Virus record (IMG/VR): IMGVR_UViG_3300045988_127579
DNA from: a virus
DNA: 64,000 bases
Reading direction: 5' to 3' (one strand)
Below are positions 9,601 to 47,976 of this stretch, piece after piece. A program made the translations under genes and the position numbers. The notes under the pieces were generated by a model. The model did no database searches. It saw only the letters and a list, made by a program, of their open reading frames with translations, and was not told where the DNA came from. Numbering within the stretch: the first letter of the stretch is position 1; each line of letters begins with the position of its first letter.

Positions 9601-11937
9601 AATGATACTAAAAAATTAGAATATTATTTTGATAAATTAAGTGATAATATTTATAAAGCTGCTGAAGCTCTTGGATATTTACAAGGTCAATTTGATCCAG
9701 TAATTAGCCAATTAGGAACTTATGAAAATTTCTATGGTTAGTTAAACAATGCTTATTCTAATGGAGAAATTTCTCAAGAAAATTATATTGAAGGCTTACA
9801 AGATGTATATGATAATACATTAGATAATTTAAATGCTTTGTAGGATTTAGATAAAGAAATGCTTGAATATTATGGTAATACTATAGATTTAGCAAATGAT
9901 GAATTATCTAAATATACAGATCATATGGAGCATTTAACTAGTGTATTGGATCATTATTGTTCTATTATTACTTTGTTAGGTAAAGACAAAGATTATGATA
10001 AAGTTTTATCAGTTTTGAATGGAACTGCTTAGACTAAGAAAAATAATTTTGATACTTCTAAACAATGGTATGAAAGCTTGAAGCGTGAACGTGATGCAGC
10101 AGCCGCAACTTTAGCCAGTTCAACCGATGAGGCTGAGCGTGAAGTGCTTCAAAAGAATTATGATGCTATATTAGCTGCATTCGATGAAGCGGAAGAAGAT
10201 ATGCTTTCTAAAGCTGAAGAATATGGTGAAGCATTAAAAGAAATCCTTACTACAAAGATGGAACAAGCTGCGGATGAAATGAATAAGCAATTAAGCACTA
10301 CCAAAGTGAGTATTAATGGTAATAACTTTAATATTTCCGGTTGGGATGCTTTAAATGATGCTTTGGATAGAATGTCTTCTTACCAAGATGAATATTTAAC
10401 AAAAACTAATTAGATTTATGAAATGAATAAACTACTTAATAATGTTAATTAGGCTATTGATAAGACAAATAATCAAGCAGCTAAAAATAGATACCAGCAA
10501 TTTACTAAAGAAATTGAGTAGTTAAGAGATAAAGATAAATTAAGTCAATTAGAATTAGAAATTGCTTAGGCTAAATATAAAGTGCTTGAAGCGCAAATCG
10601 CGTTAGAGGAAGCTCAAAACGCAAAATCCACAGTTAGATTACAACGTGATAATGAGGGTAATTTTGGTTATGTGTATACCGCAGACCAAGAGAAAGTAAA
10701 TGATGCGCAATAGGCTTTGGCGGACGCGGAAAATGATTTATATAACATTCGCCTTGATGCGACAAATAAATATGGTCAACAAAAACTTCAATATGAGAAA
10801 GAGTTGGCTGACAAACTTGCGGAACTTAATTAGAAAGCCGCGGAAGATGCTGTTTACCGTGAGACTACATATCAGCAAGAACGTGCGTTAGTAATTCAAC
10901 AATATACTGATTTAATTACTACTGCTGGAAATCTTTATGCGAAAGCTCAAGAAGAGGATAGTAGAGTCGTTCAAGACGCTTGGGTAAATTCTTTTGATAT
11001 TATCAAAGATAATAGTAATAGTTGGAAAGATACTATTACTGAAAACACTAATATTATCAATGATACATTTAAAGAATGGCAAGATAGCATGGATGAAATT
11101 AGTAAAATTGTTGGTGATGATTTAAAAGATACTCAATAGAAAGTTAAAGATGTTACTGATGAAAGTAATAAACTTTATCAAGAAGTATCTAATAAAGTTA
11201 TCCCCGCTCTTGAAGGTGAGTTAAGTTCCGTTCGTAGTGCCACTGAAGCTTGGGCACAACATCGTCAGCAATTACTTGATACTATTAGAGCTTATGAAGA
11301 GCTTTTGAACGCCATTCAAGCGACATTGCGCGCTTAGAGTGGATTTGGTAGCGATAGTAGTAATTCTTCAACAAGAGTTGATTGGTCTGAAAAAATGGGT
11401 CAAGTTGAATATGGTTCTGATAAATATAATGAATATTATCAAAATCGTGAAGATGTTATTAAAGGAGGATATGACATTAAAACAGCTACAAATGCTCGTG
11501 TTAATGCTTTTTATCAAAAAGGATTGACATTACCAATTACCCGCAATGGAAAAACTTATACTCATTTTACTGATATTCCTGATAGCGTTTGGAAACAATT
11601 AGTTGGGTTTAGAAGTGGCGGCTATACTGGCACTTGGAATGATGGTGGAAAATTAGCGTTCTTACATTAGAAAGAATTAGTTCTTAATGCTGATGACACG
11701 GAAAATATGTTAGCTTCTATCCAATTAGTTAGATAGATCGCGAAACAATTAGATTTCAATAGTCAACAAATTTCTACTCTTTCTTCTTCTGGATTTACTG
11801 TTAGTTCTCAAGATGGAACATTAGAATAGAATGTTAGAATTGAAGCTAATTTCCCGAACGCAACTGATAGATACGAAATTCAAGAAGCATTTAATACATT
11901 AGTTAATGTAGCTTCTCAGTATGCCAATAGAAAATAA
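3625..11937 (+). CDS. tail tape measure protein, about 2770 aa, with more than 100 in-frame TAG codons
   Basis: RBS AAAGGAGA + ATG 3625. All six ORF-track pieces (4429, 6358, 7231, 9055, 10078, 11395) lie in frame 1. The segments I spot-translated contain TAG but no TAA/TGA until TAA at 11935-11937. The translation is tape-measure-like, helical and Gln/Ala-rich (for example LIYYQQGLNDEQVKERTDITIKMANVARESAEIV). Confidence 0.85.
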
Positions 11938-23464: not shown

Positions 23465-24046
23465 TTGCCTAATACATTAAATAAATATGTAAAATTTGTC
23501 AGAGGTTCTAAAACCGCTTTTGAAAATTTAGGGAATAGAAGAGACAATGATACTTTATATTTTATTTATGGGAAAAATGATTCTTCTGGAGAACTTTATT
23601 TAGGTAGTCGTCTAATTTGCGGTGGAATTAGTTCCGCGGGTAAGTTAAGCGATTTAAGTGATATTGTTCTCAATGAAGTTAAAACAAATCAAGTTTTAAT
23701 TTATGATGAAGAACAAAAGAAATGGGTTAATTAGGGTTTAGAAAATAATGAGACTTTAATTAATTCTATTGTTGAAAAATTATCTACAGAAGAAAATTTA
23801 GCTAAATTAGCTCCTGTTTTTAAGGGCACAGTTCCAGGGTTAGTTCCAGTTTCTTTACATGAAACTAAAGGAAAGCATATTCTTACCGATGCAGGTACAT
23901 GGATTGATATGCCAGTAGGAACATTAACTTAGGGAGATATTGAAACAATTAATATAGCTAATAAATATTTAGTAGATAAAGGTCCTGATAATTTGGTAAC
24001 TCGTGTTGAAGCAGTCGAACAAACTGTTTCTTGGGCTGATATTTAA
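23465..24046 (+). CDS. short tail-fibre-family protein (about 193 aa) carrying the shared N-terminal fibre anchor motif
   Basis: RBS GAAAGGAG; TTG start; frame 2 to TAA 24044-24046. The N-terminus (FVRGSKTAFENL...DTLYFIYG) resembles the N-termini of genes 24061, 25841 and 36274. Confidence 0.6.
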
Positions 24047-25822: not shown

Positions 25823-25840
25823 GATAGAAAGGAGTAAATT

Positions 25841-28800
25841 ATGTCTAAGATACGTTTTCGTCCTGTATAGGGTCCAGAAGAAAAGATAAAAGCATATCCA
25901 CAAACTGATGGATATTTTTATGTGGCAACAGATACCGGACGAGTTTATTTAGATACAGCGACTGAGAATAAAATACCAATAGGTTCAAGTGGCGTTTAGG
26001 TAATTTATGGAACTGAAAAAGACGTCGGAATTGATTATGATGCGGATGAAAACCCAATCGGATATTCAATTCGTTTATCTAATTTATCAAGTTCTAATCC
26101 TCATGTAAATGATTTAATTTTAAATAGCGATGGAGCATTTTATCGTATTAAAGAATTTAAATTAAATGATGATAAAGAAGAAGTCGCAAGTTGTGAAAAA
26201 TTAACTGTCGCCGGGGCGGGCGGTGGCGGAGAAGGAGACTCTGAACAAAAAGTTTTAGGAACTGTTTCTTTAACAAGAATTCCACCCGATAGTCCTGTTG
26301 ATGTTTTGAATGAAGAAAATGTTAAAGTAAAGGTATTGGTTAAATGTAGAACTGTTGGAGGAGTTCCACAATCTTCTTCTGTGCAAGGAATTATAACTAT
26401 AAGCGAAATTAAAAGTGCTACAGAAAAAGAAATTTATTATACTTCTCCTCCTACTACTTATGAGCATAATATTCCGCAAGAAATTGATTTAACTAATATT
26501 TTAAGAAATTCATGTTCTAGTGAAATTAATTTTAGTATTTATTATAATCCTGATAAAGAAAATAATAGATTTTAGAAAAGCTCTGATACTATTAATATTA
26601 ATAAACATCATCTTTCTTTTAGTTGGAAAGAAAGTAGTTTTAGTAATGATAGTCCAGTTGATAATGGACAAATATCTGTTAGTTGGTTAATGTCTGAAGA
26701 TATTGCTAGATCTGTTGAAGTTTATTTTGATGATTATTTAGTTTTAGATAGAACTTATAGTGATACTGATTCTTCTTCTGAAGATTCTTTTGTTATTACT
26801 CCTGATACAAATATATTAGGGACTGATAAAGTTTCTACTTTAAAAAATTATTTTACTCATGGTGAGCATATAATAAAGGCAAAGTTATATTTAATGAATA
26901 ATTCTAAAAAAGGTACAGGAACAGATTTTATTTAGAAAGAAATCGTTATTCAAGAACCAGGCAATAAAATGCCTTTAATTTGGGTACAAGATTTTAAAAC
27001 AGAATATTATACTTATGAGACAATAAGAATTCCTTTTAAAGTATTAGATCCAAATAATAATGGAGCTTTTATAACTCTTTATAAAAATGGTGTTCAAGTA
27101 GGAACTAGAGAATTAGATAGTTCGCAAGTTAGAGAATGGCAATATTGGGAAATTACTAATTTAACTGTAGATGATAGTTCTTATTATACTATTAAAGTTG
27201 GTACTGATCCTTATTCTTATTCTCGTAATTTTAATTTTACAATTTTAATTGACCCTTTAAGAGATATGAAGTTAGTAAAAAAAGATAATTTAAAGGTTAA
27301 TTTTATAGCTACTGGTCGTTCTAATTCAGAAGGAAAATTAGGTCGTGAAACTTATTTAATTAATAATAATAAATATGTAGAATTTAAAAATTTTAACTGG
27401 TATAATAATGGTTGGGTTTTTGATGAAAATAATACGACTTGTTTACGAGTAAGCAATGGTGCTGAAGTATCTATCCCAGTCGGAAAAATGGCTTTTAAAG
27501 ATGGATCATCATCTGCTACTATTGAGATTCAATTTAAAATAAAGAATCCTCAAAATTATGCTAAAGTTATAACTAAATATACTAGATATAAAGTAAGTAA
27601 AGATAATTGGGAAGATAATGATGCTTGGGATAAATTTAAAGCCCAAAATAAATATCTTAATTATGATGAGTTTTTAACTAAAGAATATTTACCGACAACT
27701 AATTATACTTATGATGATTTAGAATATAATAAAATAGAACAAGATTTTAATTTAAAGAATTTAGTTTGTGCATATGGTAAATTAGGGAATTCTGTTTCTC
27801 CTGGTATTTATTTTAGTCCATAGGATGCTGTATTTACAGCTAACGGGGCTCAAGAAACAGTTTCAGTTGATTTTATTGAAAATGAAATGCTAAATCTTTC
27901 ATTTGTTTATACTAAAAAGAAAAGTGATATAGAAGGCGGAAATTCTAAATTATTAGAAATTTTTATGAATGGCGTTTTAACTAGTGTTGTACGTTGTAGT
28001 AGTGATGTTTGGAATATTGATTCTGATTTCATTAAATTTATGTCTAATACTTGTGATATTGATATTTATAGTATTAGAGTTTATGATACAGATTTAACTA
28101 TTCCTGAAATAGTCCAAAATTACGCTTTTGATAAGAGAAGTATAAAACAGTGGGACCAAAAAGATCTTTATGAAAACAATACGGTATTAAAAGATGATGT
28201 ATTTTCTTATACTAAAATGAAAAAGTATAATGATAATCATCCGACTGAACCTTTAATGCCCTATATTATTCTAAGGACTACTAAAAATAATAAAAATAAT
28301 ACGGATAATAGATTACCTTATTCTAAAGCAAAAGGAAGCTAGGAAGGAACTTTAGAATTTGTTAACACTGCTTTAGACGCTGCTTACAATAGTGGTGAAT
28401 TAGAAAAAGTTGCTATAAAAGAAGGATGGAAACCTGTAATCGAAAAAAATGAAGAAACATAGGAAGAAGTAGTAAAATATACTGCGGTATAGAATTATTA
28501 TATGCATCATTGTCCTAGTTTTATAACTGTTCTTAATGGATGTACTTTCCAAGTTCAAGGTACTTCTTCACAATTTTATCCTCGTCGTAATTATAAAGCT
28601 AAATGCAAAGAATCAATGCTTTTAAATAGAGGCCCATTTGCTGAAGACTATAAAAAAGCAGGAGACTAGTATAATGAAGATATAACTAAACATCCTTGTT
28701 ATTTAGAGTGGTTTTATATGGATAATAAGACAGTCGGTACTACTAAATTTACTTTAAAAATAGATTTTATGGAATCTTCTGGAGATTATAATAGAGGATT

Positions 28801-31800
28801 TGCTAATTTAGTTAACGAGATTTATTCTAAACATCCAATAGAAGACTATAAAGATTCTTTTGATAATTATAATTTATATGGAAATTTAGAAGATTATCGC
28901 ACTTCGGTAAAAGGATTCCCCGTTTTAGCTTTCCATTATATGTCCAACGATGATAATACTTACTCTAAGGAAAATAGTAATAACTGTATTTTTATTGGCA
29001 AATATAATATGTTATTAGATAAAGGCTCAGATGAATGTTTTGGATTTAAGCCAAATAAAAAGATTTTACAAAATCAAATTACGGGCAACCCTAAAGTAAG
29101 AGATATGGCAGAATGTTGGGAATTTTAGAACAATTCAAGAACTTTTTGCTCTTTCCGCGACCCTTGGAATCGTTATAAATTATCATTTAGAAATCCTAAT
29201 ATGGTAATCCCTCCAGATGGAGATAATCCTGAATTAGTTAAAGGCGCTCCAAAAGTCGTTGATTCTTTTGAACCAAGATATAATCCAAATGATGATTTAA
29301 TTGCTGATAATTTATTTAGTTTAAAAGAGTGGCTTGATCCAGATGGGACATAGACTAAGATTGTTGGGGAAGAATTAAAAAATGTAGCCCCAGATAGACT
29401 TACTAAAAAAGAAATAGTTGATGAAATTACTGGTATAAAATCTATTAAATGGATTATAAAGAACCCAGACGGAGAAGAAATAGAATTTAATGTTGCTAAT
29501 GATACAAGTAAACAAGAATTACTCTTAGCTTTAATGTCTAACTGGGAAGACGCAGTTAGTTGGGTGTGGAGTACTTGTTTAGATTGCGATATTGAATTTG
29601 ATGATGGATAGAAATTAAAAATTCCATCTATGGGCATTTATACTAAAGTTGATGGATTAGCTGAAGCTATATATGTTCCTAATGTCTATTATGTTGAAGA
29701 TGGAGTTAATGAAAATGGAAAAATTATTTATAAATTAGCTTCTGAAGAATATAACTCTGAAACAAGATATTATAAGTAGATTAATGAAAATAATAGTTTA
29801 AAGTATGTAAGCATAAAACTTACAAATAATTCAGATAAAGTATATAAAGCAAATATTTATTATCTTTTAACTGATAGTAAAAATGAAATTTATGTATTAA
29901 GTTCTGATAAATTTAATTCTTCTTTAGATTATTATTCTTTTAATAAAAATGAAGAAGGTATTGAGGAAAGATGGAAATTACCTAATCCAGTAACCTATGG
30001 CTCTATTACTTATACTAAAGATAGTAAAGAATACCGTCAAGCTAAATTTAAAAATGAATTAAGTAATTTCTTTGATATTGAATATTTAGCTTCTTACCTT
30101 TTAATGACAGAAATTTTTGAATGTTATGATTCTCGTGGAAAAAATGCAATGTTTGCTTCTTGGGGACCTCAAAAAGGTAATATTCAAAAATCTACTGGCA
30201 AACAACATTATATTTGGTATCCTATCTTTTATGATATTGATACTCAATTAGGTATTAATAATACTGGTATCCCATCTTTTGAATACTACATTGATGCTAC
30301 TGAAGAAGGAAGTTTTTCAACTAATGATAGTGTTCTTTGGAATAATTTTTACACTTTCTTTAGAAGTAAGATGGTGGATAAATATAAGCAATTAATGGGA
30401 ACTCAAAATAATTCTTATAGTCCAAATGATTCAAGAGTAAATAAAATTTTTACCAAAGGAGCAGGAAGCGGGGCTAAAAAAAGTGATATTGTAGATAAAT
30501 GGTATCGTACTGATCCATCGGTATTTCTTGATAGCTATGCCGTTCTAGGAGACAGACCAATTGTTGCCTTAAGTTTAGACGAAGAATTTAAGTATATTAT
30601 TCCAACAAACTCTAAAGCCAAAGATATGCCAGTGTTTGGTCGTTTGACTGATGGAGGTTCATATGAGGTTGAAGATGATAAATATTTTTATGCTTTGCAA
30701 GGAGATAGAAATCTTTATCGCGCGCAATTTTTAGCAAATCGTCTTAATTACATCGACTCTTGGTTGACCGTTGGCACTTATGCTAGAAATGGTGGAGGAA
30801 GCTATATTAGAAGTCGTATTTCTGCAAACAATCCTAAGAATACGTCAGATAAATGGATTGAAGGCACTAATACTCAAAATATGGAAGGATTAATTACAAA
30901 TTCTCAGTATTGGAAAAATGATGTTGAATTCGAAGAGAAAAATCATATGTTCGATGGTGAGTATTGGATTAACATGGAGCCCGCGCGTAATGCTTATGTT
31001 ACTATTGGCACAGATGGAGAGAATTTTCCTTCAAAGAAATATAATGGTTTAGAACCAGTTAAATATGTAGCTCCTGATATTAAAAAAGGAATTATAAGTA
31101 GCGGTAATTATAAAGAACAATTATATTATATTTATGGAATGGATCAAATGAAATCTCTCGGTGATTTAAGTAAATTATATTTCCAAGAGTTCGCGGCTGA
31201 AGGAAAAATGGAGCGTTTAACTGATTTATTATTAGGATATGATGGAAAAGATGAAAGTGGTAATGAATATTTTAATAATGATGTAAATGACTGGTCCTTC
31301 TCAAAAGGCGGAATGCCTTTACTTAAAGAAATGAATCTTTGTAATATTAACTTTAAAAAAGACTAGGGGGCATTAGATTTAACTAAAAGTGAAAAACTTG
31401 AAAACTTTAGAAATACTAAATCTAATATCCCGAGAGTTAATTTTGCTCCTGGAGTAGCTTTAAATACTTTATATTTAACCAATCGAACAAATTATTTAAG
31501 TTTAATAGAAGCTAATTTATTAACGAAATTAATAACTAACTATATATATCCTGAAAAAAATCCAATTACTGGAAAACTTGAGGTCTCAGATGAAAATCGT
31601 GGTTTATATATTCAAGGTCTTACTGATGCTGAAGAAGGAAAAGAAAAAACCGAGATAAGAACTTTTGATATTCGAGGCGGTAATTTAGGTTATAATAGTT
31701 ATGAATTGTTACGCAAATATATTTCAGCTAGTAAAAATAGTAAATTAGATTTATCTAATTGTATTATTAATTTAAATAATGTTTAGTGGAGTCCATATAG

Positions 31801-33586
31801 ACTTCTGACTGACACTAAAACAACTCTTGATCCAGAAAGAAAATCTTATTATAGAGATAATGGACATTTTTAGTTGGTAGCTATTCCAAAAGATTAGGTT
31901 AATAAAATAACAAAATCTGATATTAAAAATAATTAGATTTATTATTTAGATACAATAAATGGAGACAATAATAATCATAGTATAATAACTGATTATAATT
32001 TATTAATTGATATTTATAATAATTATAGGGGTCTTAATACTAATAAGCCAGAAATATCTGGTGTTATGTATATAAAAAATAATAATTAGATTGATGAATC
32101 TATTATCTAGAATGAGTTATAGGATAAATACCCTGATTTAATAATTTTTGTAGAAAATGTTAAACAAGAATGTTCTGCCAAGTTTATTTTAGAAAAAGAA
32201 GATATTGATGGAGTATTAATTTAGGAGGTTCTAAAAACTTAGAAATTACCCTTATCTAGCAGTAAATTCTTTGATGATCCAACAAATTCTTCTAGCGAAA
32301 CTTATATTTCTTTTGGTAGCTTACAAGAAAAAATGCCAACTTATGATTTTAAAGGTTGGGAAGATGATACGGGAGAATTAGTAATTGCTGTTGGAAAAAA
32401 TGTAAATGAAGAAGACGTTGTTTTAAAAAGCGATTGGAATTCTTTGTCTTTACAATCTAATAAAATGGATTATATTTTTAAAGCGAGATTTGAGCGCAAA
32501 TCTTATACGATCACTTTCGTTAATGGTGACCGCGTTATTAATGATTCAACTGTAAAGAAAGTATTTAATTATGGTGAAAGAATTACTGTTCCAGAAGAAT
32601 TTTATTATTTTAATAATACAGAAGTATCTGATTTACCAGAAGGCGAAGACTCATTAGAATGGACTTGGAGATAGACGGGATGGGCGGATAAAGATGGAGT
32701 TAAAATTGATTTAACTAAACAATTAGCCTATGCTGACCGCGAATTCTACGCTGTTGGAGAGCCGATTAGTGTTTATGATAATATTTTAACTAATGATTCT
32801 ACTCATAAATATTATGATATTATAAATTCTGATGGAGAGTTATCATTTGTAATGACTGACTTAGCTAAGAATTTAAAAGGTAAAGTTACTTTACCTACAA
32901 CTTATAACGGTTAGCCGATTACAAGAATTAAATATAGCCAAGTTAATCCATCAGCAGCAGTTGGTATTCAAGTAAATCCTAATATCACTGCGATATTTTT
33001 TGCTCCAAAAGATAGCAATAAAATTTCTGTAATAGATGATTATGCTTTTATTTTAGATAGTGGGTTAGAATATTTCCAATTTAGTGATTGTTTAAAGAAA
33101 ATTGGTACTAAAGCATTTTATCAATGTCCTTTAAGTCGTAATAACATAATTCCTTATTCTTCTTCTACTGAAGGTTTGACTTTTGGAGCTCAAGCATTTT
33201 ATCAAAGTAAGATGGGTTCTTATTCTCCTTATAATTTAATTATAGAGGGATGCAAAGACGGTATTCTTAATTTTGATATAAATGCATTTTCTGGTCAGAC
33301 AATTTTAAATATGTCTGGTAATTAGTTTAAAGGTTATACTGGCGCTATTCAAGTATAGATTGGTACTAATAAACACCCAATTAAACAAATTACAGCAGAT
33401 AGCTCTGGCAATATTTTTACTCCTCGTCAAACTGGTATGCCTACAGTGGCTAATGGATACACAGGTCGTTTTAGATATTATTATGTTGCTAGTTATGGTG
33501 AAAGTATTAAAAATACTTTACACAATATTTATGAAGCAATGATATCTAATAGAGCGAATTTTGAAGAAGAGCCTATTGTAAAGTGA
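25841..33586 (+). CDS. giant tail fibre / adhesin, about 2581 aa, with about 40 in-frame TAGs and BspA-like leucine-rich repeats near the C-terminus
   Basis: RBS GAAAGGAG; ATG 25841. Frame 2 links ORFs 26306, 26690, 26969, 27887, 28718, 30104 and 32333. I translated every gap segment codon by codon and found no TAA/TGA until TGA 33584-33586. The N-terminus (FRPVQGPEEKIKAYPQTDGYFYVATDTGRVYLD) is the shared fibre motif. An LRR-like stretch (AFILDSGLEYFQFSDCLKKIGTKAFYQC) lies at about 33.0 kb. Confidence 0.75.
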
Positions 33587-33595
33587 GGATAAATT

Positions 33596-33796
33596 ATGGA
33601 AAAAGAAATTGTTTATAGATATATGGGTTCTAACGGTATTATTGAATCTTCTATATAGTTGACAGGAATTCCTGCGACTACTTTGTATAGATTAATAGCA
33701 GATTACAATAAGAAATTAACGAGAGATGGAAAAGAATTCTTTTCCATCTCTCCTTTAGTTCCCGAAGATGAATTAGAAGAATGGTATGAGGTCTAA
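33596..33796 (+). CDS. small hypothetical protein (66 aa), one TAG
   Basis: RBS GAGG; ATG 33596; ends TAA; followed by a terminator. Confidence 0.4.
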
Positions 33797-33830
33797 ATAG
33801 GCCAGAATACATTGATTTAAATATAAAAAA

Positions 33831-33876
33831 AATTAGGTTAAATAGGAAAAGAAACTATTTAACCTAATTTTTTTAG
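33831..33876 (+). terminator. rho-independent terminator
   Basis: Stem AATTAGGTTAAATAG / CTATTTAACCTAATT followed by TTTTT. Confidence 0.65.
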
Positions 33877-33892
33877 AAAGGAAGAGATAGAT

Positions 33893-35575
33893 TTGATAGT
33901 TAAAAATGATAGTGTTATCGAACAAGCTAAATGGGAAGAGCTTCAAAAGAAAATCAATACTTTAGCTAAAGATAACTCAATAAAAAACGTTAATGGAAAA
34001 ATCGTTGAAATAAAATCTATTGAAGACTATTATAGTAATATCACTGGTATCGTTCAAATGAAGAAATTAGATCCATCTGTTCTTCGTATACCTTTAGATG
34101 AACCTATTATAAATATAAACGCTGATACTCGTCAAATTGAATTAACTAAAGAATTTGGAAAAACACAATTACTTACTGTTGAAAATGATCATTTGGCAGA
34201 AACAATTTATTTTCAAATTGATAGATATTTTGATTTACAAGATTTAGCGGCTGATGATATTAAAATTTATATTCAGTATTATTTAAACGATCAAGTTCAA
34301 GGTTATTCTGAAGCTATTTGTCCTGATATCGGGACTGCTGGAAAACTGATTTTTGGATGGCAAATTAGTGATGAAGTGACTAGTGAATCTGGTACTTTAT
34401 AGTTTTCTATTATTTTCTTTAAAAAGAATCCAAAAGATAATAATAATTTAATGTATGTATTTAATACATTACCGGCGCAAATGGTTATTAATAAAACTTT
34501 AGATATTGACGAAGATTTAATTACCGCTTAGCCTGTTGATTATTTAACTGGTTATCTAGAAAGCCTAATTGATTCAAAGAAATCTGCTGGTTTTGGTGTT
34601 CCTGATAATGTTGCTTTCTTGACAAGTATTTTAAATAATAAATCTGTTTATTTAACAGGTGATAAATTATATGCTTTAGCCTATAATGATACTTTAAATA
34701 ATCCAGATAATACTACAATTGAATATAAATGGATTTGTAATTATAGAGGAACTAATACTGAATTAAAAAGTGGTATTGGTTATGAATATAAAAAAATTAT
34801 TGAAGATAATAGTATTTTTAGTGGAGATATGGTTTATAATGAAAAATTAACTTATTTCACTAAAAATGGAGATTCTTATATTAATAGCAGTAGTGATATT
34901 AATCTTGAAAACTACACTGCTAAGAAAAATGATCTCTATTTAAAAGTTCAATATTGTGAAGTTGATGGATGCGGAAGCTATAGTGTCACCGCGTTTGGCG
35001 CTACTGCTAATCAAGTAAGCAAAGAAGTTAAATGGACTGGATTGGCTATTTCTGTTGAAGGAATTAGTGAAAATTTTAGAATTGTTCTTGATCCTTCTCC
35101 TGATAATGGATGCTATTATGGTTCTTCTAACACTATTACTGCTGTTGGATAGAATGATGAAGGTGTTTAGTGTACTTATCTTTGGAAAAAGAATGGCTCT
35201 GATTTTAGTACTGAAAAAACTGTAACCTTAACTAAAGAAGATAATTATACTTTGTCAGTTCATGGCTATAAAAATAAAGATAGTATAGATTATCCTACAA
35301 TTAGTTTCACTAATTATTTTGATCCAACTAATTTAGTTCCTGTCATTGATAAAAAAGTTAAAATTGAGAATGGAAAATATATTGTTACAGTTACTAACAC
35401 TAGTGAATTAGGCAATGGTATTTATGAATATCAATGGAAAAATGCGTAGGGTGCTACTTTAAAGACAACTTCTGATAATTCAACAGAAGTAGATGAAAAT
35501 ATTACTCAAGGAGCTGTAATTATCCAGAAGGGTGAAAGAAAATCGCAACCAGGAACCTTTAAGATTGAGGGGTAA
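33893..35575 (+). CDS. tail-associated protein (about 560 aa); its N-terminal 200 aa are paralogous to gene 35581..36201
   Basis: TTG 33893. Frame 2 links ORFs 33893, 34619 and 35252 to TAA 35573-35575. Shared motifs with the downstream gene include DHLAETIYFQIDRYFD and NTLPAQ. Confidence 0.65.
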
Positions 35576-35580
35576 GATAA

Positions 35581-36201
35581 ATGATAACTAATCCAACTGA
35601 TTATTATAGTGTTTTACATCAAATACAAGATGAAAATTTTCCAGTTAAATATCCTGCTCTTCCAGCCCCAGAAGATGAGAAGTTGGTTTAGATAGATTTA
35701 AACTCAAGAATTATTAGTAATGAAAATAGTTATATTACAGTTGAAGGTGATCATGCTGCTGAAATTATTTATTTTGAAATAGATAGATATTTTGATACCA
35801 TGGATTTAACTAATATGATGTGTATTATTTAGTATATTAATGCTGATAATGAAAAACGCATTTATCCAGTTCCATATTATGATACTTTAACTCATAAAGA
35901 TAAAATTATTTTTCCTTGGGTTTTAAATTATAGTGCTACTAAAAAATCTGGCAATTTAAATTATATGATAACTTTTTATAAAATAGAAAAAGATTCTAAT
36001 AATTTATTATATAATTTAAACACATTGCCAGCAAGTCTTTAGGTTTATTCTAAACTTAATTTAGATTCTATTGTAAAAGAAGAAGATTATTATGTAATTG
36101 ATGATAGCCAAGTAGTCCAACAAATTTGGGAGCGTTTAGCTCGTTTAGAAGGATTTGTTGGTGGTAATGGGTTGGATGTTTATTGGATTGTTCTTGAATA
36201 A
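35581..36201 (+). CDS. paralogue of the N-terminal domain of the preceding gene (206 aa), 3 in-frame TAGs
   Basis: ATG 35581 (RBS GAGGGG). Frame 1 runs to TAA 36199-36201. Matching motifs include EGDHAAEIIYFEIDRYFDTMDL and NTLPASLQVYSKL. Confidence 0.6.
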
Positions 36202-36210
36202 ATAAACTAA

Positions 36211-36243
36211 ATGGTATAGAATTATTAATTAATTCTATACCAT
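36211..36243 (+). terminator. hairpin, possible terminator
   Basis: 13-bp stem ATGGTATAGAATT / AATTCTATACCAT; the 3' T-run is weak. Confidence 0.4.
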
Positions 36244-36273
36244 TAATTTATAGAAAGGAGTTATTGAAGATCG

Positions 36274-37302
36274 ATGGCTCTATTTAAAATTTTAAAAGGA
36301 AACTCAGACAGATTAGTCACCTATAATGCAGAAACAATTAATGGGAAAATACCTTTTCCATCTTTGGATTCTGGAAAAACTTTATTTACAACAGTAGATG
36401 ATACTACCCCTATTACAGAAGGGTATGCCTATTTTACAGAAGATACTCATAAATTTTATATTGATACGGCAAACAAAAGATTAAATTTATATACTGACCA
36501 TGCGGATTATGCTACTTATGATGAGAATGGACGTAATTTAGCGGAATTGTCAGAAGTATCTTATGAAAATATCGATGATACTGGAAGTAAAATTGGTACA
36601 ATAAATATTAATGGAATTGAATATAATGTTACTTGTCCGGCAGATATAGTGAGTAAACCTGTAAATAAATATGTGTTTACAGCAAAAGCAAACTAGAATA
36701 CATTTACAATTCCTTTCGATTTTGATGATAGCAGTGCTTTAACTTTATATTATAATGGTATTATGTTAAAAGAAACAGATCATTATACTATTAAAGGAAA
36801 AGTTATTACTTTAAATGGATGGACTAGTGAAGCTGATGATTATCTTGCGGTTATGGGTATTGAAGGAGCTGCTGCTATTAATGTAGATGAAAAAGTTGCT
36901 TAGATTTAGGAAGCAATAGATAACGCTGAAGTAACTATTAATAATAAAGTAAGTAGTGCTATTAAACAAATTGACGATAAATTAGCAACTGTTCCTGACG
37001 ATGTAACACAAGCAGTATATAAAAATAAATCTAATATAATGACTGCTGATGGTAGAATTACGATGGATAGTAGTTATGTTCCTACGGCTGATATGGAATT
37101 AGCTACTAAAAAATATGTTGATAATGCTACTCCTCCTACGGTTGGAACTACTACTGATTATTCTATTTATATTGGATCTACACAACCTGCTTCGGGGACC
37201 GCGCCTTTAGTATGGATAGATACAACTGCCAAAACTGGCACTTTTAAATATAGAACTTCTACCACGGGTACTTGGACACCTGTTCCTGTAGCTTGGATTT
37301 AA
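36274..37302 (+). CDS. tail fibre protein (about 342 aa) with the shared N-terminal motif
   Basis: RBS GAAAGGAG; ATG 36274. Frame 1 joins ORFs 36274 and 37039 through 3 TAGs to TAA 37300-37302. Confidence 0.65.
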
Positions 37303-37336
37303 TATAAATTTATTGTAAGAAAAAGGAGATAATATT

Positions 37337-37747
37337 ATGGATCAAAATTTAATTAATCAATTATTCCAAGTATGTTTGATTCCTATGCTTGGCGCTTTAA
37401 CTACTTTTATAGTTATTTGGATTAAAGCAAAAAGCGCGGAATTACAAAAGAAAACTAATAATGATATTTTAAATAAATATGTGCAAATGGCTACTGACAC
37501 AATTACTAACTGTGTTATTGCCACTAATCAAACTTATGTAAATTCTCTTAAAGAACAAGGTAAGTTTGATGAAGCTGCTCAAAAAGAAGCATTTTAGAGA
37601 ACTTATCAAGCAGTATTGCTTATTTTAAGTGATGATGCTAAAGAGTATTTAAATAATGCTTTTGGTGATTTGAATAAATATTTACAAGAGAAAATTGAGT
37701 CTACAGTAAATAATTATCGTACTCCAAGTAATGATTTAAAACAATAA
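37337..37747 (+). CDS. holin, LL-H (phage_holin_1) family, about 136 aa, one in-frame TAG
   Basis: RBS AAAAGGAGA; N-terminal transmembrane helix. The motif FGDLNKYLQEKIESTV matches FGDLDDYLGNKVEAGV in the Lactobacillus phage LL-H holin. Ends TAA 37745-37747. Confidence 0.75.
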
Positions 37748-37752
37748 AAAAT

Positions 37753-37794
37753 AAGGGAGACATTCTTAATTGAATGTCTCCCTTATTTTTTTTA
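37753..37794. terminator. bidirectional rho-independent terminator between the convergent late (+) and early (-) modules
   Basis: Stem AAGGGAGACATTC / GAATGTCTCCCTT with TTAATT loop, A-run on the 5' side and T-run on the 3' side. Confidence 0.75.
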
Positions 37795-37972
37795 TCTAAA
37801 TGGATTTTTCCATCGTCGATTAATTTCTTCATAGCCTTTTTTAGGAAAATATAAAACTTCACCATATTTTTTTTTATTAGTCTTTAAGCGGTAATTTTAA
37901 AGTCCTTTCATAGTACTCTTTAGCCTATCCATTTCCACCTAAACCTGCATATACTTTAAAGAATTCGACTAA

Positions 37973-38305
37973 CTATTCATACTGCCCTGAAGTCATATAT
38001 CCTTGTTTTAAGAAACTTTGACATAACTGAATTAATCTAAATCTATAAGAAGCAAGAATTATTTCAATATATCTCTCACTAATTTTCTTTTCTTCCAATA
38101 CGAAAGATCTTAAATTATTTAGATCTTCTTTGATTGGAGCTATATGCTCTTCAATTAATTCTTCTAATTGTTCATCTTTCTTTTCTTCTGCCAATTTTTG
38201 ATACATTTTCATTTGAGTATAAATATATCTACAAAAGGCTAAGAGGCCAGCAGAAATAAGACCAAAAAATATTTCTATAAAATGCTAGGCAATAAAAGTA
38301 GACAT
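37973..38305 (-). CDS. small membrane protein: N-terminal TM helix plus charged helical tail; holin- or spanin-like; one in-frame TAG
   Basis: RBS AAGGAGG; ATG at 38305; TAG at about 38286; in frame with ORF 37973..38212. The sequence FIEIFFGLISAGLLAF is hydrophobic. Ends TAA. Confidence 0.55.
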
Positions 38306-43416: not shown

Positions 43417-44022
43417 TTATTTATCTTGGTCCATTTCCGCCCATTGCTTAACTTTTTGAGTTAAAAGATTAACAATATTATTATAATCTTCTAATGTTTC
43501 ATTTGTCACAACATTGCACTTAATATCATTCATTAGCTAAAATTGAATTTCATCAGTAGTATATCTTCTAATGATTTCATTTACATCAGGATTTTTTTCT
43601 CTATTTAATTGCCTAATTAAGCGTGTCTTTCCTTTAGCGGTAATATAATATATCTCCAATTCAATTCTATCATCTTTAAGAAGACTTATAATTCCTTCAG
43701 GATTAAAAACACCAATATTAACTTTACTATCAGACAAACTATCAATACTTGTGCCATAATACCAATTATTAAAAGAAGTGGTTTCTAACATTTTATTTTC
43801 ATCAATTAAAGTTAAAAACTGGTCATCTGAAACAAAATGATAATTTTTGTCTGCTATTTCTTTTTCACGCTTCGGGCGCGTAGTGTGGCTTATAATAGGA
43901 TTTAAATATTCCTCTAAGTGGGAAAAGGTAGCCATCATTAGGCTATCTTTTCCCGCACCAGATTTTCCACATAATGCAATAATTTTATACATCTTCTTCA
44001 ATTCCTCCTTGATAACGAGCAT
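43417..44022 (-). CDS. guanylate-kinase-like dNMP kinase with a TAG-bridged C-terminal extension
   Basis: P-loop GKSGAGKDS and motif ISHTTRPKRE. The ORF-track end at 43537 is a TAG, and the frame continues 40 codons to TAA. Confidence 0.65.
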
Positions 44023-47000
44023 CTTTTAAAACTAAATCGCCATTAGATAAAATTTCATCAATTTTATATAATTGATGCCCTCCAGAAGAAGCATATTTTT
44101 TTGACATGAAATTATCTCCATTGCGGATTCCAGAGACTACAATCATATTTCCGCGATTAAACCAAGATTTTTCAACAATATGTTTGGTTCCATCTGCACC
44201 GCGCTCTGAAATTTGTTTATCAAACAAACTAAAATATTCTTTTCTAAATTTTACTTCTACAGGACCAGTAGTAGTAAGGATAGTTACGGTACTTTTAGTT
44301 TTATTTTTGGCAATACAAGTTCCGCAAATTTTAAATAACTTATAAATATGAATAGTATGATTTCCTTTAGTAAAACTTCTATCAATTATTGGGTCTTCTG
44401 GAAGTTTAAAGAAATCTACAAATCCATATTTATCATTGTTAATATTGTTTAATTCATGAGTATGATAATAATAACAAAGAACTTCCATTTCCCAAGCGGA
44501 TAGATTATTTTTATTAGCGTATTTATCCCAATCATCTTTAAATATTTTTATATTCAGATTATTCAAAATTTCATCTTTATTATTAGCAATCCAAGTGCGA
44601 AATATATCCATCCACTTTTGGTATATACCATTCCAAATATTTTCACTTAAAGAATAATTAGTTCCATCAAATTGAATATTATTATCTTCTCCAATTTCTA
44701 CTAAGAAATTAATAGCTCGTTCATCAAGTTGATATAAACCATTATTTTTTGTAGTTTTACAAATTGCTTTTAAATATCTATTAAATTCATAAATACGGCG
44801 AGCCATAATTTGATTTTCATTTTCTTCTGGAAGAAGATCATACTTCATAAGTCCGCCCATATTTTGAAGAGTAATTCTTTTCTTTTTGTCGCAAGTTTCC
44901 CAAATATACCAAATCATTAATTCTTTTCTATCCATCATATTATCAAAAGCTCCGCCTTTAATAAGAGAAATCATAGCTTGTTTACCTGGCTTAATACGAT
45001 ATAAAAATTCTTTAGGATTTGAATAAGGGCGATTGGCAATGATTGTATTAACTAATTCATCACCAACATTTAGCATACCTTTTAGTCCAAAAAGGATTTT
45101 ATTATTTTCAATATCAGGGGCAAATCCAAATTTAGATTTGTTAATATCAGGAAGACCTACTTCAATTCCTGCTTTTTGAATGTCACTAATAGCCTTGGCA
45201 ATTTTTCCATAATCAGTAGCCGCGGTTTTGCGGATTTTGCCACTTTTGTCAGGAAGATCTTCAAATGTTACTCCATTAGCTAAATCATCGCCTTCAGGAG
45301 CATAAATATCGACAATCTCTTCTTCGCTATTATCTTCAAGGGAACCACTATTAACAATTAAACAAGCGGTATCCCAATAGATAGGATTAAAATGAATTAC
45401 TAAGTAAATCATTTGAATTGCTACAAATGAATAAGGAAGGGAATGGTTAAGGCTAAATGCATATCCTAATTGAGGAGCAACTGCAATTTCCCAAAAGTAT
45501 TCAGCAGATTTTTCATTATCAAATTTACTAAATACTTGTTCTCTCAGTTGTGGAATTTTAGCCATTTGCTTTTTAGCAACAATCTTACGCGCAGTATTAG
45601 CTTCACCAAGAGTAAAATGAGCTACATCCATAAGGATTTCCATCATTTGCTCTTGAATAGGACAACATCCATAATATTTATCACAATGCTTATGCATCTT
45701 ATCAATTAATTCTTGTGGAAGATGCTGAGCCTTCATTTCATCATCAAATACTTTAATACCCGAATGTTGAATGCGATAATATCTATCTTGCTGTGATTCC
45801 TTGCCTTTTTCAGACATAAGACGCATCATAGCATTTGCCGCCGTCATTTCCATAGGGTCTTGGGGTTTAAGACGTTTCGCAATTGCTAAACCAACTCCCG
45901 TAGAAAATTGGAATACATCTAATACATCACCCGCGGCAAGGTGGTCCCAAATTGCTTGGTCAGTTGTATCTATTACTTCTGGATGAATATATTTATTATA
46001 GAATTCTCGTAAAGATAATTCTGGAATTTGTTTATCTTTTAGAAGTAATTGATAACAAGTAATAATTTTGTCAGAAGCTTCAGTTACAAGGAAGTCATAT
46101 TTTGTATCTCCCGCGGCTTCCGCTTTATGAAGATCCCAACAAGTAATCATATCTCCACTAGGAGTTCTCATAAATGATGCTGTATCAAATGGATCGTCAC
46201 CATACAAAATAACGCCAGAAGCATGAGAAGAACGTTTATTAACCATTCCTTCAATATATACAATAATATTCAAAAGACCAGGATATTGGTTTACTTCTCG
46301 AATAAATGCTTGAACGGGTTTACGGTCTTTTTCTTCATTACCATAAATAACATCATGGATAGGCCATAAAAATCCACGCTCTTGGGGAATTAATGAAGAC
46401 ATATATTGAGCATTATCAACATCAATTCCTTCTGGAAATTCTTCACTTCTATATCCACGACAAGCAGTTAAAATACTTTGTTTAGTGCCTTCAGTTCCAA
46501 ATGTAGCAACTTGAACCAATCCCAATTCTCCGCGTTCTTTTCTAATTGCTTTAAAAATTGCGGGACGCTTACTTGGGGCAAGGTCAATATCAATATCGGG
46601 CAATTCCGCGCGCTCCTTATTTAAAAATCTCCAATAAGGAAGTCCCCAACGAATTGGGTCTAATTGAGTAATACCTAAAAGATAATTAGATAAAAAGCCA
46701 GTCGCAGAACCACGTCCAGGACCTACAATACTTCCACATTCCCAAAATAAATTAATATAATGTTGGAAAGTATTAAAATAAGCAAAAAGACAGTCATCTA
46801 ATTTTTCGCCAATATCTTTTATGATATCAGCTTCAATTTCAAGTCGTTCCAAATAATTTTTATTATTATAAAGTTGCTTTTCTTGTAAAGCTTTAATACA
46901 TTCATTTACCCAATATCGTTCTTGAATATTGTCGCTATTAATTAAAGAACAGATAATTGGATATTTATCGAACCAATTTGAAGGAATAAATCCTTTCTTA

Positions 47001-47976
47001 TAATCCTTTACTTCAACTTTTGGAATAATTTGTTTTCTTTCTAATGAATAAAAAGAAATTTTATTTTGGATTTCTTGAGTGTTATCAAGAATCCAATTTA
47101 TCAATTCTTTTCCTGTTTTATTACCTTTATCCCAATCATTAGCATAAGGTTCCATTAATTCAAAAATTTCATCACTCGTCATTAAGTAAGTAAATTTATA
47201 AAAATCGTCAACTTCTCTTTCTCCTGGCTTAGAAGTAAGATATGCTTTATGAATGGATCTATCGTCTTTAGTTAAATAATGCGCATCTGTTCCAACTACC
47301 ATTTTTAAATCAAATGCCTTGGCGATTTGATAAATTTTATGATTTACAATTATTTGCTCAGCATCAGTAGATGGCGCACATTCAAGATAAAAATCATCTT
47401 TTCCAAATACTTTAATACAAAAATTGATATAATCAATTATTTGATTATAATATTTAGTTTGAGTTTCAATATCTTTGTTTAATTCAGCTTGGAACATTGG
47501 TAAAATACAACTCCCAAGTTCTCCACCAATACAAGCAGTTGTTGCTATAACATGCCCTTTATATTGTTCCATTACCATTTCAAGTTCACTTTTTAAAGTA
47601 GGAACTCGTTCCATACGTCTATCAACATAACTATGAATCCAAGCAATAGAACTTAATTCTCTTAACGCTTTATGTCCAATGGCATCTTTAGCAATAAGAA
47701 TAAAGTGGTAATATTTTTGTCCGTTATCTCTTGTATCAGTGAGATAAATTTCATTACCAAGAGCAATAGTAAAATCAGGATTTTCTTCTCTTATTTTTTT
47801 TGCATATTGATTTACTTCCATATGCGCAGAAAGGCATTCATGGTCTGTAATAGTTATTCCTGATAGGCCTAATTCTATCGCTTTGTCAATAAGAGCTTGT
47901 GGTCTATTAATACAGTCAAAGTAAGCGGAGATTCGAATACATAGTATGATTATGGATACCAAAATATGATCTCATT
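43985..47976 (-). CDS. dnaE: DNA polymerase III alpha subunit (DnaE family), TAG-free; apparent +1 frameshift needed after 19 codons
   Basis: The 1325-aa ORF 43985..47962 carries PHP and polymerase domains. A well-placed ATG (RBS GGAG, ATGA overlap with the HNH stop) starts a 19-codon frame encoding MRSYFGIHNHTMYSNLRLL (PHP motif HxH[ST]xYS) that stops at TGA inside CTT TGA C. Confidence 0.8.

Follow-up and report, generated by a model that had tools for sequence, protein, structure and literature searches.

A giant TAG-containing phage gene encodes a putative tail-tip protein of the Hankyphage DGR-target family with a CotH-like core

The 64,000-nucleotide stretch of viral DNA analysed here (IMG/VR record IMGVR_UViG_3300045988_127579; hereafter the window) contains a 7.7-kb run of codons on its + strand, at 25841-33586, that is broken by no stop codon other than TAG. 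The locus raises two questions: whether this run is a single gene, and what its product does for the phage. An original prediction, made from the sequence alone, had taken it for a single read-through gene encoding a giant fibre or adhesin with BspA-like leucine-rich repeats (LRRs), one of at least four fibre genes with a common N-terminal anchor domain. We found that it is one real gene, encoding a single polypeptide of 2,581 aa. The product belongs to the family of giant proteins typified by the target of the diversity-generating retroelement (DGR) of Hankyphage. Most likely, at a probability of about 0.6, it is produced late by reading through TAG and forms part of the virion tail tip, where its N-terminus would dock it and its lectin-like and LRR modules would bind the host or its surroundings.

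The giant gene (7,746 nt) runs from ATG at 25841 to TGA at 33584-33586 and comprises 2,581 sense codons. An in-frame TAA at 25835-25837, two codons 5' of the ATG, makes 25841 the earliest possible start, and a Shine-Dalgarno sequence (AAAGGAG) lies about 8 nt 5' of it. The frame contains 27 TAG codons; TAA and TGA were looked for within 25841-33583 and neither was present, which confirms the single read-through open reading frame (ORF) that had been proposed. In the two remaining + frames, 4.8% and 15.9% of the codons are TAA or TGA. At these rates log10 P for 2,581 stop-free codons is -56 and -194 (P < 1e-55), so chance is excluded as the origin of the ORF. Read with the standard code, the gene falls into 28 pieces, the longest of 528 codons and several of fewer than 10.

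The decoding of TAG was assessed by comparison with relatives, the close ones of which lie on metagenome-assembly contigs of 188-198 kb. One of them (L001; 192,919 bp) has a giant gene 96% identical to that of the window and was compared codon by codon. TAG was kept at 23 positions, and every difference involving it exchanged TAG for CAA or CAG (9/9); in six other structural genes the same exchange accounted for 12 of 14 differences. The giant genes of two distant relatives (L002 and L004) contain no TAG over 2,575 and 2,218 codons, and their collinear homologues read through under the standard code. Gln was the commonest residue aligned to the TAG codons of the window (23%, against a background of 3%). 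The 41 window genes that could be delimited hold 228 in-frame TAGs and end in TAA (32) or TGA (9), never in TAG. Long ORFs containing TAG make up the + strand block 1-37747. The share of Gln codons written as TAG is 33% in the giant gene, 37% in structural genes (+ strand) and 11% in replication genes (- strand), with TAG absent from those for DNA polymerase, primase and Sak4. These comparisons show that the phage decodes TAG as glutamine (genetic code 15), and the table-15 translation that had been suggested with the original prediction is upheld by the TAG-CAA/CAG swaps and by the TAG-free homologues. No tRNA, and hence no suppressor tRNA, was detected in the 64-kb window, about one third of the genome, or in the analysed pieces of L001-L004.

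Protein searches returned 80 homologues, mostly of 2,100-2,900 aa, collinear with the giant protein and about 22% to 97% identical to it; they represent hundreds of database sequences, of which ~400 near-identical copies fall in the cluster of P0002. One of them (P0001) has the same length and is 97% identical. In an alignment of 38 sequences (A1), the conserved blocks were aa 1-125, 340-1165, 1380-1900 and 1900-2470, whereas aa 125-340 and 1166-1379 were variable. The alignment has 63 invariant columns, some 43 of them within aa 906-1634. The tail-module position of the gene was constant across six related loci.

A tblastn search of GenBank phages with aa 1380-1900 gave 29 records, 22 of them Bacteroides phages, including the p00-type Hankyphage. 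In Hankyphage p00 (BK010646) the match is a 6,738-nt ORF (31489-38226; 2,245 aa) that lies directly 3' of a 'minor tail protein' and ends, on its 3' side, with the variable repeat of the DGR (PMC6199706). The A1 profile matched the Hankyphage protein with E 4.6e-131 in four collinear blocks covering Hankyphage aa 330-1828. Direct BLASTP gave 2e-16 and 9e-14 at a pairwise identity of about 22%, and two of the homologues are intermediate: over its whole length P0080 shares 52% identity with the Hankyphage protein, and P0076 shares 33%.

The Hankyphage protein has been described as a large ORF with a C-type lectin domain, unlike any characterised protein (Benler et al., PMC6199706), and more recently as a putative tail fibre whose DGR is active (2025 study, PMC12135933). 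Mass spectrometry on Hankyphage particles detected tail proteins, one of them in a >250 kDa gel fraction, under an accession not assignable to the giant ORF (PMC12135933, Table S6). DGR targets of about 2,000 aa that carry CotH and Laminin_G_3 motifs were catalogued from phage contexts (Wu et al., PMC5758913), Roux et al. (10.1101/2020.04.01.020958) reported viral targets 2,284 aa long whose kinase domain is CotH-like, and CotH-lectin fusions in phages were called 'currently unstudied' (Benler et al. 2021, PMC8008677).

Set against these descriptions, the giant protein has the size of the family (about 2,000 aa or more, with an alignable core). The central CotH motif is present at family level, the closest relative of the window copy (98% identical over the segment) giving no match by itself. 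A DGR-bearing C-type lectin tip is absent, the window C-terminus being of LRR_5 type. No direct or inverted repeat of at least 70 nt was found in the 64-kb window, and no template/variable-repeat-like pair of at least 40 nt in 23-38 kb. No reverse transcriptase was identified among the window ORFs, which were not exhaustively scanned for one. By its collinear core the giant protein belongs to the family of the Hankyphage DGR target (Wu 2017 category f1; Roux PC_00012). This kind of protein is thus already known, uncharacterised and seen so far as DGR targets. The variant found in the window (fibre-type N-terminus, BspA-LRR tip, no DGR repeat in reach, ~190-kb recoded SPbeta-like phages) was undescribed in the searches that we made. 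Across the family the core is kept, and N-terminal and distal modules are exchanged. The relationship unites the giant DGR target of Hankyphage with a large, hitherto separately observed and unnamed set of 2,100-3,000-aa tail-module proteins from phages of ~155-210 kb, many of them TAG-recoded. Hankyphage is among the most widespread human-gut phages.

Along the protein we distinguished the following modules, all on the + strand:

25841-26209, + strand: N-terminal domain (aa 1-123) with a small beta-barrel and the fibre-type motif F-x-P-V-x-G...G-x-x-Y-x-A-T-D-T-G-x-x-Y-L-D
26210-26233, + strand: Gly-rich linker GAGGGGEG (aa 124-131), which alignments A1 and A4 give as LTVAGxGGGG
26234-27280, + strand: variable beta-rich region (aa 132-480), probably immunoglobulin-like; poorly conserved over aa ~125-340 and conserved from ~340, no Pfam match
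27281-28240, + strand: LamG/ConA-like lectin-type region (aa ~481-800); aa 659-799 aligned to aa 694-826 of P0076
28508-29335, + strand: CotH-like core, part 1 (aa ~890-1165); invariant columns in A1 and A3, aligned N-terminally of the Pfam CotH matches in P0076 and P0065
29336-29977, + strand: insertion within the core (aa ~1166-1379), lineage-specific; distant homologues lack it or have another sequence there, with BLASTP breaks at ~q1165 and ~q1380
29978-30940, + strand: CotH-like core, part 2 (aa ~1380-1700); aligned to the CotH region of P0076 and by tblastn to Hankyphage p00
31148-31810, + strand: possible LRR-like stretch (aa ~1770-1990), LxxLxLxxN-type pattern by eye; no Pfam support in the window copy
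32288-32770, + strand: two YxFxGW repeats (aa ~2150-2310), A1 consensus 'YDFxGW ... YxFxGW'; perhaps Listeria-Bacteroides (Flg_new / InlB B-repeat)-like
32858-33340, + strand: BspA-type LRR (aa ~2340-2500), degenerate in the window copy; Pfam LRR_5 and PDB matches

The core is the most conserved part of the giant protein; the original prediction had noticed neither this nor the homology to the DGR target of Hankyphage. Its first part carries the invariant motifs QGTSSxxYPxxN (906-917), KxDxMxSS (973-980) and DK (1060-1061); the second carries D1430-S-R-G-K-N1435 (nt 30128-30145) and F-Y-D1465-I-D1467-T (nt 30227-30244). In homologue P0076 the Pfam CotH model (PF08757) matched aa 1051-1140 with 43.8 bits against a cut-off of 23.8, and aa 1402-1517 of the giant protein align to P0076 aa 1074-1170, overlapping this match. 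When core segments were scanned singly, CotH was matched in 8 of 14 (best E 1.2e-9) and no other family in more than one. A search for CotH-like domains had been suggested with the prediction, and at family level it was positive. Since homologues match CotH and the window copy does not, the relationship of the giant protein to CotH is transitive. Its only PHROG matches were to two families without an assigned function, phrog_14959 (E 7.6e-52) and phrog_24896 (aa 659-1071).

Ahead of the core, the stretch of P0076 aligned to aa 659-799 scored 25.3 bits with Laminin_G_3, just below the cut-off of 27.6. PF13385 is precomputed for P0076 and P0080, and the window copy has no match to it. A LamG-like region in front of the CotH-like core is therefore weakly suggested. 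Behind the core, the LRR-like stretch at aa ~1770-1990 is conserved as far as Hankyphage (profile block 4). Pfam Flg_new in P0057 (E 0.0045) and the InlB structure 2y5p (E 0.17) give a weak hint that the YxFxGW repeats are B-repeats.

For the C-terminus, structural relatives were strong at family level. The family profile matched the BspA-type structure 4fs7 with E 1.3e-39, followed by 4gt6, 4h09 and PcpA (4cp6) down to 1e-19. At the aligned place, homologues scored 47-54 bits with LRR_5 (PF13306), above the threshold. In the window copy itself the match to LRR_5 covers aa 2393-2454 (nt 33017-33202) with 19.9 bits against a gathering score of 27.7 (E 7e-4), and the window C-terminus matched the structure 4gt6 with E 0.006. 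The BspA-type LRR thus lies where it had been predicted, with the pattern AFxxCxxLxxI present at aa 2393-2454; it is strong in the family and falls short of the Pfam threshold in the window copy. The idea of a classical fibre was not borne out: the giant protein is a chain of globular modules.

The claim of a common N-terminal anchor concerns three further genes:

23465-24046, + strand: upstream fibre-like gene, 193 aa, TTG start, N-terminus YVKFVRGSKTAFENL...DTLYFIYG...GELYLG; orthologues in L001, L002 and L004
24061-25722, + strand: upstream fibre-like gene, 553 aa, TTG start; end-to-end orthologue of L002 8310-9863 (E 6e-34)
36274-37302, + strand: downstream fibre gene, 342 aa, N-terminal motif ITEGYAYFTEDTHKFYIDT; matched by the N-terminal hidden Markov model (HMM) described below

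The starts named for these genes held, 23465 and 24061 being TTG with good Shine-Dalgarno sequences and 36274 ATG. About 70 of the 80 giant-protein homologues start with F-x-P-V-R/Q-G-x-E-x-x-I...G-x-x-Y-F-A-T-D-T-G-x-I-Y-L-D...P-x-G-G, followed by D-L-I-L-N-S-D-G-x-F-Y-R-V and then the Gly-rich linker. An HMM was built from the N-termini of the giant family and searched against 348 window ORFs translated with TAG as Gln. It matched the giant protein and 36274 (E 1.9e-6; 6.8e-9 after one iteration) and no others, the 24061 and 23465 proteins of the window being unscored (E > 5). Positional orthologues of 24061 were matched in L002 (1.3e-6), L003 (2.5e-4) and L004 (0.03), and those of 36274 in L001, L003 and L004. 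In the alignment with the L002 orthologue, the motif of the 24061 protein is broken by a 10-aa insertion. The 23465 protein and its orthologues show a similar-looking motif by eye (YVKFVRGxxxAxxxL...TLYFI...LYLG), and the 23465 protein has a weak match to PF24243, 'phage tail tip domain' (E 0.024, aa 10-35).

The proposal of four genes with one anchor domain therefore stands directly for the giant gene and 36274, by transitive orthology for 24061, and by eye together with the weak PF24243 match for 23465. What is common to them is a motif of about 35 aa and not the whole ~125-aa domain. A fibre-type N-terminal motif thus appears to head several genes of the cluster, and a role as baseplate anchor is plausible. 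Replacement of the N-terminus in Hankyphage-type relatives (alanine-zipper-like in P0076) agrees with a docking module that can be exchanged. When databases were searched with the N-terminal profile, all matches were fragments of 70-265 aa. The majority come from short contigs and a few from contigs as long as 200 kb, and they resemble giant genes truncated by a TAG or by the end of the contig.

Comparison of closely related phages showed that the gene is mosaic. Between the window and L006, the phage of P0013, flanking genes are 92-100% identical, the first ~500 nt of the giant gene 96% and its last ~1.2 kb 87-100%, whereas the central ~6 kb (26341-32341) is only 67-81% identical. L001 and L007 show the reverse, with identity of 84-86% over the first 500 nt and 90-100% over the remainder of the gene. 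These shifts suggest that recombination has occurred close to the Gly-rich linker and around aa ~2170, so that the giant gene is a hot spot of recombination in which there are two or more break regions. Recombination hot spots are typical of host-interaction genes. When the N-terminal allele was set beside the upstream baseplate genes, the latter were similar in all three close relatives.

Taken together, these results are consistent with the following picture. The giant protein would be expressed late by a ~190-kb SPbeta-like siphophage that decodes TAG as glutamine. Its N-terminal domain of ~125 aa, with the motif common to neighbouring fibre proteins, would dock it to the tail. Beyond the Gly-rich linker, beta-rich and LamG-like modules would follow, and then the conserved CotH-like core with its kinase-type D..N..D residues, which may have an essential role within the adhesin. 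LRR-like and B-repeat-like modules would lead to the BspA-type LRR domain as the likely ligand-binding tip. In the Hankyphage homologue the same core carries a hypervariable C-type lectin tip in place of the LRRs. Comparison across the family makes residues D1430, N1435 and D1465 and the LRR tip handles for gut-phage host recognition, and it raises a testable question, the purpose that a kinase-like domain so conserved would serve on the tail of a phage.

Several observations weigh against this picture. We infer the virion location of the giant protein, and likewise N-terminal docking, C-terminal binding and any catalysis by the core. The giant protein passes no Pfam threshold; CotH was not matched at E <= 1 by the window protein or by P0001, and LRR_5 stayed below its gathering score. 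An AlphaFold2 (AF2) model of the core (P0001 aa 840-1720, 14 sequences) was poor, with a predicted local distance difference test (pLDDT) score of 52.6, and a Foldseek search of the PDB with it gave no match at E < 2. Neither profile nor single-sequence searches of the PDB returned a CotH structure among their matches. No fibrous repeats were found in the sequence, and the 64 kb seen hold no suppressor tRNA. Finally, the part that diverges between near-identical phages is the central 6 kb and not the C-terminal tip, which is a poor fit to a simple scheme in which the tip decides specificity.

The giant protein might instead be mainly an enzyme, an active CotH-like atypical kinase or phosphotransferase that sits on the tail or is ejected from it and modifies the host envelope or host proteins, with the lectin and LRR modules serving just to target it; this would be compatible with an adhesin. 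Such a role draws on the core, where about 43 of the 63 invariant columns lie, including D-x4-N (D1430...N1435) and F-Y-D-x-D (1463-1467), which resemble kinase catalytic and metal-binding residues. In CotH of B. subtilis D228 and D251 are catalytic (PMC7821199), and by motif comparison with them the invariant D1430, N1435, D1465 and D1467 fit the pattern and may be read as the catalytic-loop Asp/Asn and the metal-binding Asp of a kinase-like fold. The CotH matches in 8 of 14 core segments and the retention of the core though both ends are swapped also speak for it, and host manipulation has been proposed for DGR-linked relatives by Roux et al. (10.1101/2020.04.01.020958). However, the invariant residues were mapped onto catalytic positions by motif alone, no alignment to a solved CotH having been obtained, and the AF2 model was poor, with no Foldseek match. 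An extracellular kinase would find scant ATP, and ejection as an effector is unlikely for a protein that has 2,581 aa and so many modules of binding type. In Mucorales, CotH proteins are described as invasins of host cells, so that a CotH fold alone is not proof of catalysis. We consider it unlikely that the giant protein is mainly an enzyme, and quite unlikely that the core acts as a functional phosphotransferase which the phage tail displays or delivers. If it did, this widespread family, which extends from Bacteroides Hankyphage to ~190-kb recoded Firmicutes-type phages, would comprise the first virion-borne kinase-type enzymes acting on the host surface or host proteins at adsorption or entry. 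Its exchangeable tips, a BspA-LRR here and a DGR-diversified C-lectin in Hankyphage, would then only aim the enzyme.

Alternatively, the giant protein could be a virion decoration that binds the environment (gut mucus or glycans) and leaves receptor recognition to the fibres 23465, 24061 and 36274. Modules of the BspA-type LRR, LamG-like and B-repeat-like kinds are characteristic of the adhesins that gut bacteria carry on their surface, the three other fibre genes are at hand for receptor binding, and mucus adherence was suggested for the Hankyphage protein (Benler et al., PMC6199706). The giant gene nevertheless lies within the fibre cluster and has its N-terminal motif in common with fibres. 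Moreover, the Hankyphage homologue is a DGR target, and DGR targeting of a phage tail protein is tied to host tropism in BPP-1 (summarised in PMC6199706). A purely environmental role therefore seems decidedly improbable to us, and we retain a tail-tip protein that binds the host or its surroundings as the preferred reading.

That the stretch is no single gene at all, but a row of 28 short standard-code ORFs or a decayed pseudogene, has in its favour the fragments of 42-265 aa named 'hypothetical protein' by standard-code pipelines and the lack of a suppressor tRNA in the window, and is refuted by the comparative data: 2,581 codons pass without TAA or TGA, TAG in the giant gene swaps with CAA or CAG only, standard-code relatives encode the whole collinear protein without TAG, TAG terminates no window gene, and the fragments all share one frame, several being shorter than 10 codons.

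In recoded phages, giant-family genes become visible only with code-15 translation, because standard annotation shreds them into 'hypothetical' fragments. In public standard-code annotations (JGI/IMG, NCBI) the giant gene is held as pieces of 42-265 aa labelled 'hypothetical protein' or even 'Hcp' or 'transthyretin-like', as seen in the database clusters of P0002, P0013, P0019, P0054 and P0063 and in matches P0193-P0312. An antisense ORF of 154 aa without TAG (29173-29637, - strand) lies within the giant gene and is probably spurious.

The remaining features of the neighbourhood were as follows:

613-1596, + strand: virion protein phrog_2729 (PHROG match)
3625-11937, + strand: 2,770-aa ORF that by eye is rich in coiled coil and resembles a tape measure; with 79 in-frame TAGs it has the highest TAG density of the window
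between the 3625-11937 ORF and the fibre-like genes, + strand: tail proteins (phrog_21056, phrog_30026, phrog_1887/32343)
starts at 21107, 23465 and 24061, + strand: fibre-like genes 5' of the giant gene
33596-33796, + strand: candidate assembly or chaperone partner of 66 aa, starting 10 nt after the giant-gene stop
34058-35575 and 35581-36201, + strand: paralogous gene pair 3' of the 66-aa gene
3' of fibre gene 36274, + strand: holin (phrog_13712)

The giant gene thus lies between tail proteins (phrog_1887, phrog_21056) and the holin. Six related loci have one gene order: baseplate, two or three fibre genes, giant gene, small gene, two paralogues, fibre gene, holin/lysin. Both the PHROG neighbours and this synteny bear out the tail and fibre block in which the gene had been placed. 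A gene of 66-72 aa occupies the same place 3' of the giant gene in five of the loci (L001, L002, L004, L006 and L007); Pfam matches of the 66-aa product in the window are weak. The paralogues 34058 and 35581 have in common their N-terminal ~145 aa, a domain marked by DHxAExIYFxIDRYFDxxDL (BLASTP E 1e-16; DNA repeat D2), and the pair is kept downstream of the giant gene in L001-L004, the loci read at sequence level. The family occurs in one gene order with two codes, standard in L002 and L004 (0 TAG) and recoded in L001, L003, L006 and L007 (13-28 TAG). Between the holin and the first - strand gene, L001 (21953-25844) and L006 (21911-25803) carry a block of ~4 kb that includes a response-regulator-like gene and is missing from the window (37747-37877).

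The window has a GC content of 30%, and strand polarity changes at ~37.8 kb. The - strand encodes DNA polymerase III alpha, primase, Sak4, dUTPase and HNH. The DNA polymerase III alpha-type replicase (43985-47821, - strand) shares 39% identity, across 98% of its length, with its counterparts in SPbeta/phi3T-type Bacillus phages, and this similarity places the phage near SPbeta-like large siphophages. Neither blastn with the giant gene nor megablast with 24 kb of the replication module gave a match among 50,697 GenBank phage records, and no Rfam family was found. The phage is a large (~190 kb), low-GC, long-tailed siphophage, SPbeta-like and with Firmicutes-type ribosome-binding sites. If the 2,770-aa ORF is a tape measure, it would imply a very long tail. 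A crAss-like phage was considered and rejected: by eye this ORF resembles a tape measure and no virion RNA polymerase, and the nearest relatives of the DNA polymerase are of the SPbeta type.

How, then, does this locus compare with known systems? Late-gene TAG bias is a feature of recoded gut phages (PMC10879173, PMC11210395), and the window matches it, with 37% in structural against 11% in replication genes. At the N-terminus, the Mtd_N type (Mtd of Bordetella BPP-1) and streptococcal phage HylP have a like short motif, '(F)xxG...G-x-x-Y-x-x-x-D-T-x-x-x-Y-x-D/G', which here heads several fibre genes of one phage. Fold matches in BFVD included proteins annotated as Mtd_N, tail collar and hyaluronidase. 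The Pfam Mtd_N model gave no significant match, one of 39 members reaching E 0.15, and we take the resemblance as a lead and not as membership.

The BspA-like LRR proteins (4fs7, 4gt6, 4h09 and PcpA 4cp6) match the C-terminal repeats of the family, and AFxxCxxLxxI is present in the window. They are bacterial cell-surface proteins with signal peptides or anchors, whereas the giant protein is phage-encoded and has no N-terminal hydrophobic signal by eye. CotH, the atypical protein kinase of the spore coat (PF08757; B. subtilis, B. cereus), is matched by family homologues, with the invariant D-x4-N and D-x-D inside the matched stretch. CotH is, however, a stand-alone enzyme of ~360 aa, while the corresponding domain of the giant protein is split by an insertion of ~215 aa and embedded in 2,581 aa; with the window copy itself below any Pfam score, its fold and activity can only be presumed to be CotH-like.

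The closest system is the DGR target of Hankyphage p00. Both proteins are giant, both are encoded directly after tail genes, and both have a collinear core that seems to combine LamG-like and CotH-like parts. They differ at either end: the window protein begins with a fibre-type motif, where the Hankyphage-type relative P0076 has an alanine-zipper-like coiled region (Alanine_zipper), and it ends in a BspA-type LRR, where Hankyphage has a DGR-diversified C-type lectin. The Hankyphage target carries a variable repeat, whereas the window has no template/variable repeat pair in its 64 kb. The genomes also differ, the window coming from a ~190-kb TAG-recoded SPbeta-like phage with Firmicutes-type Shine-Dalgarno sequences and Hankyphage being a 43-kb Mu-like Bacteroides prophage.

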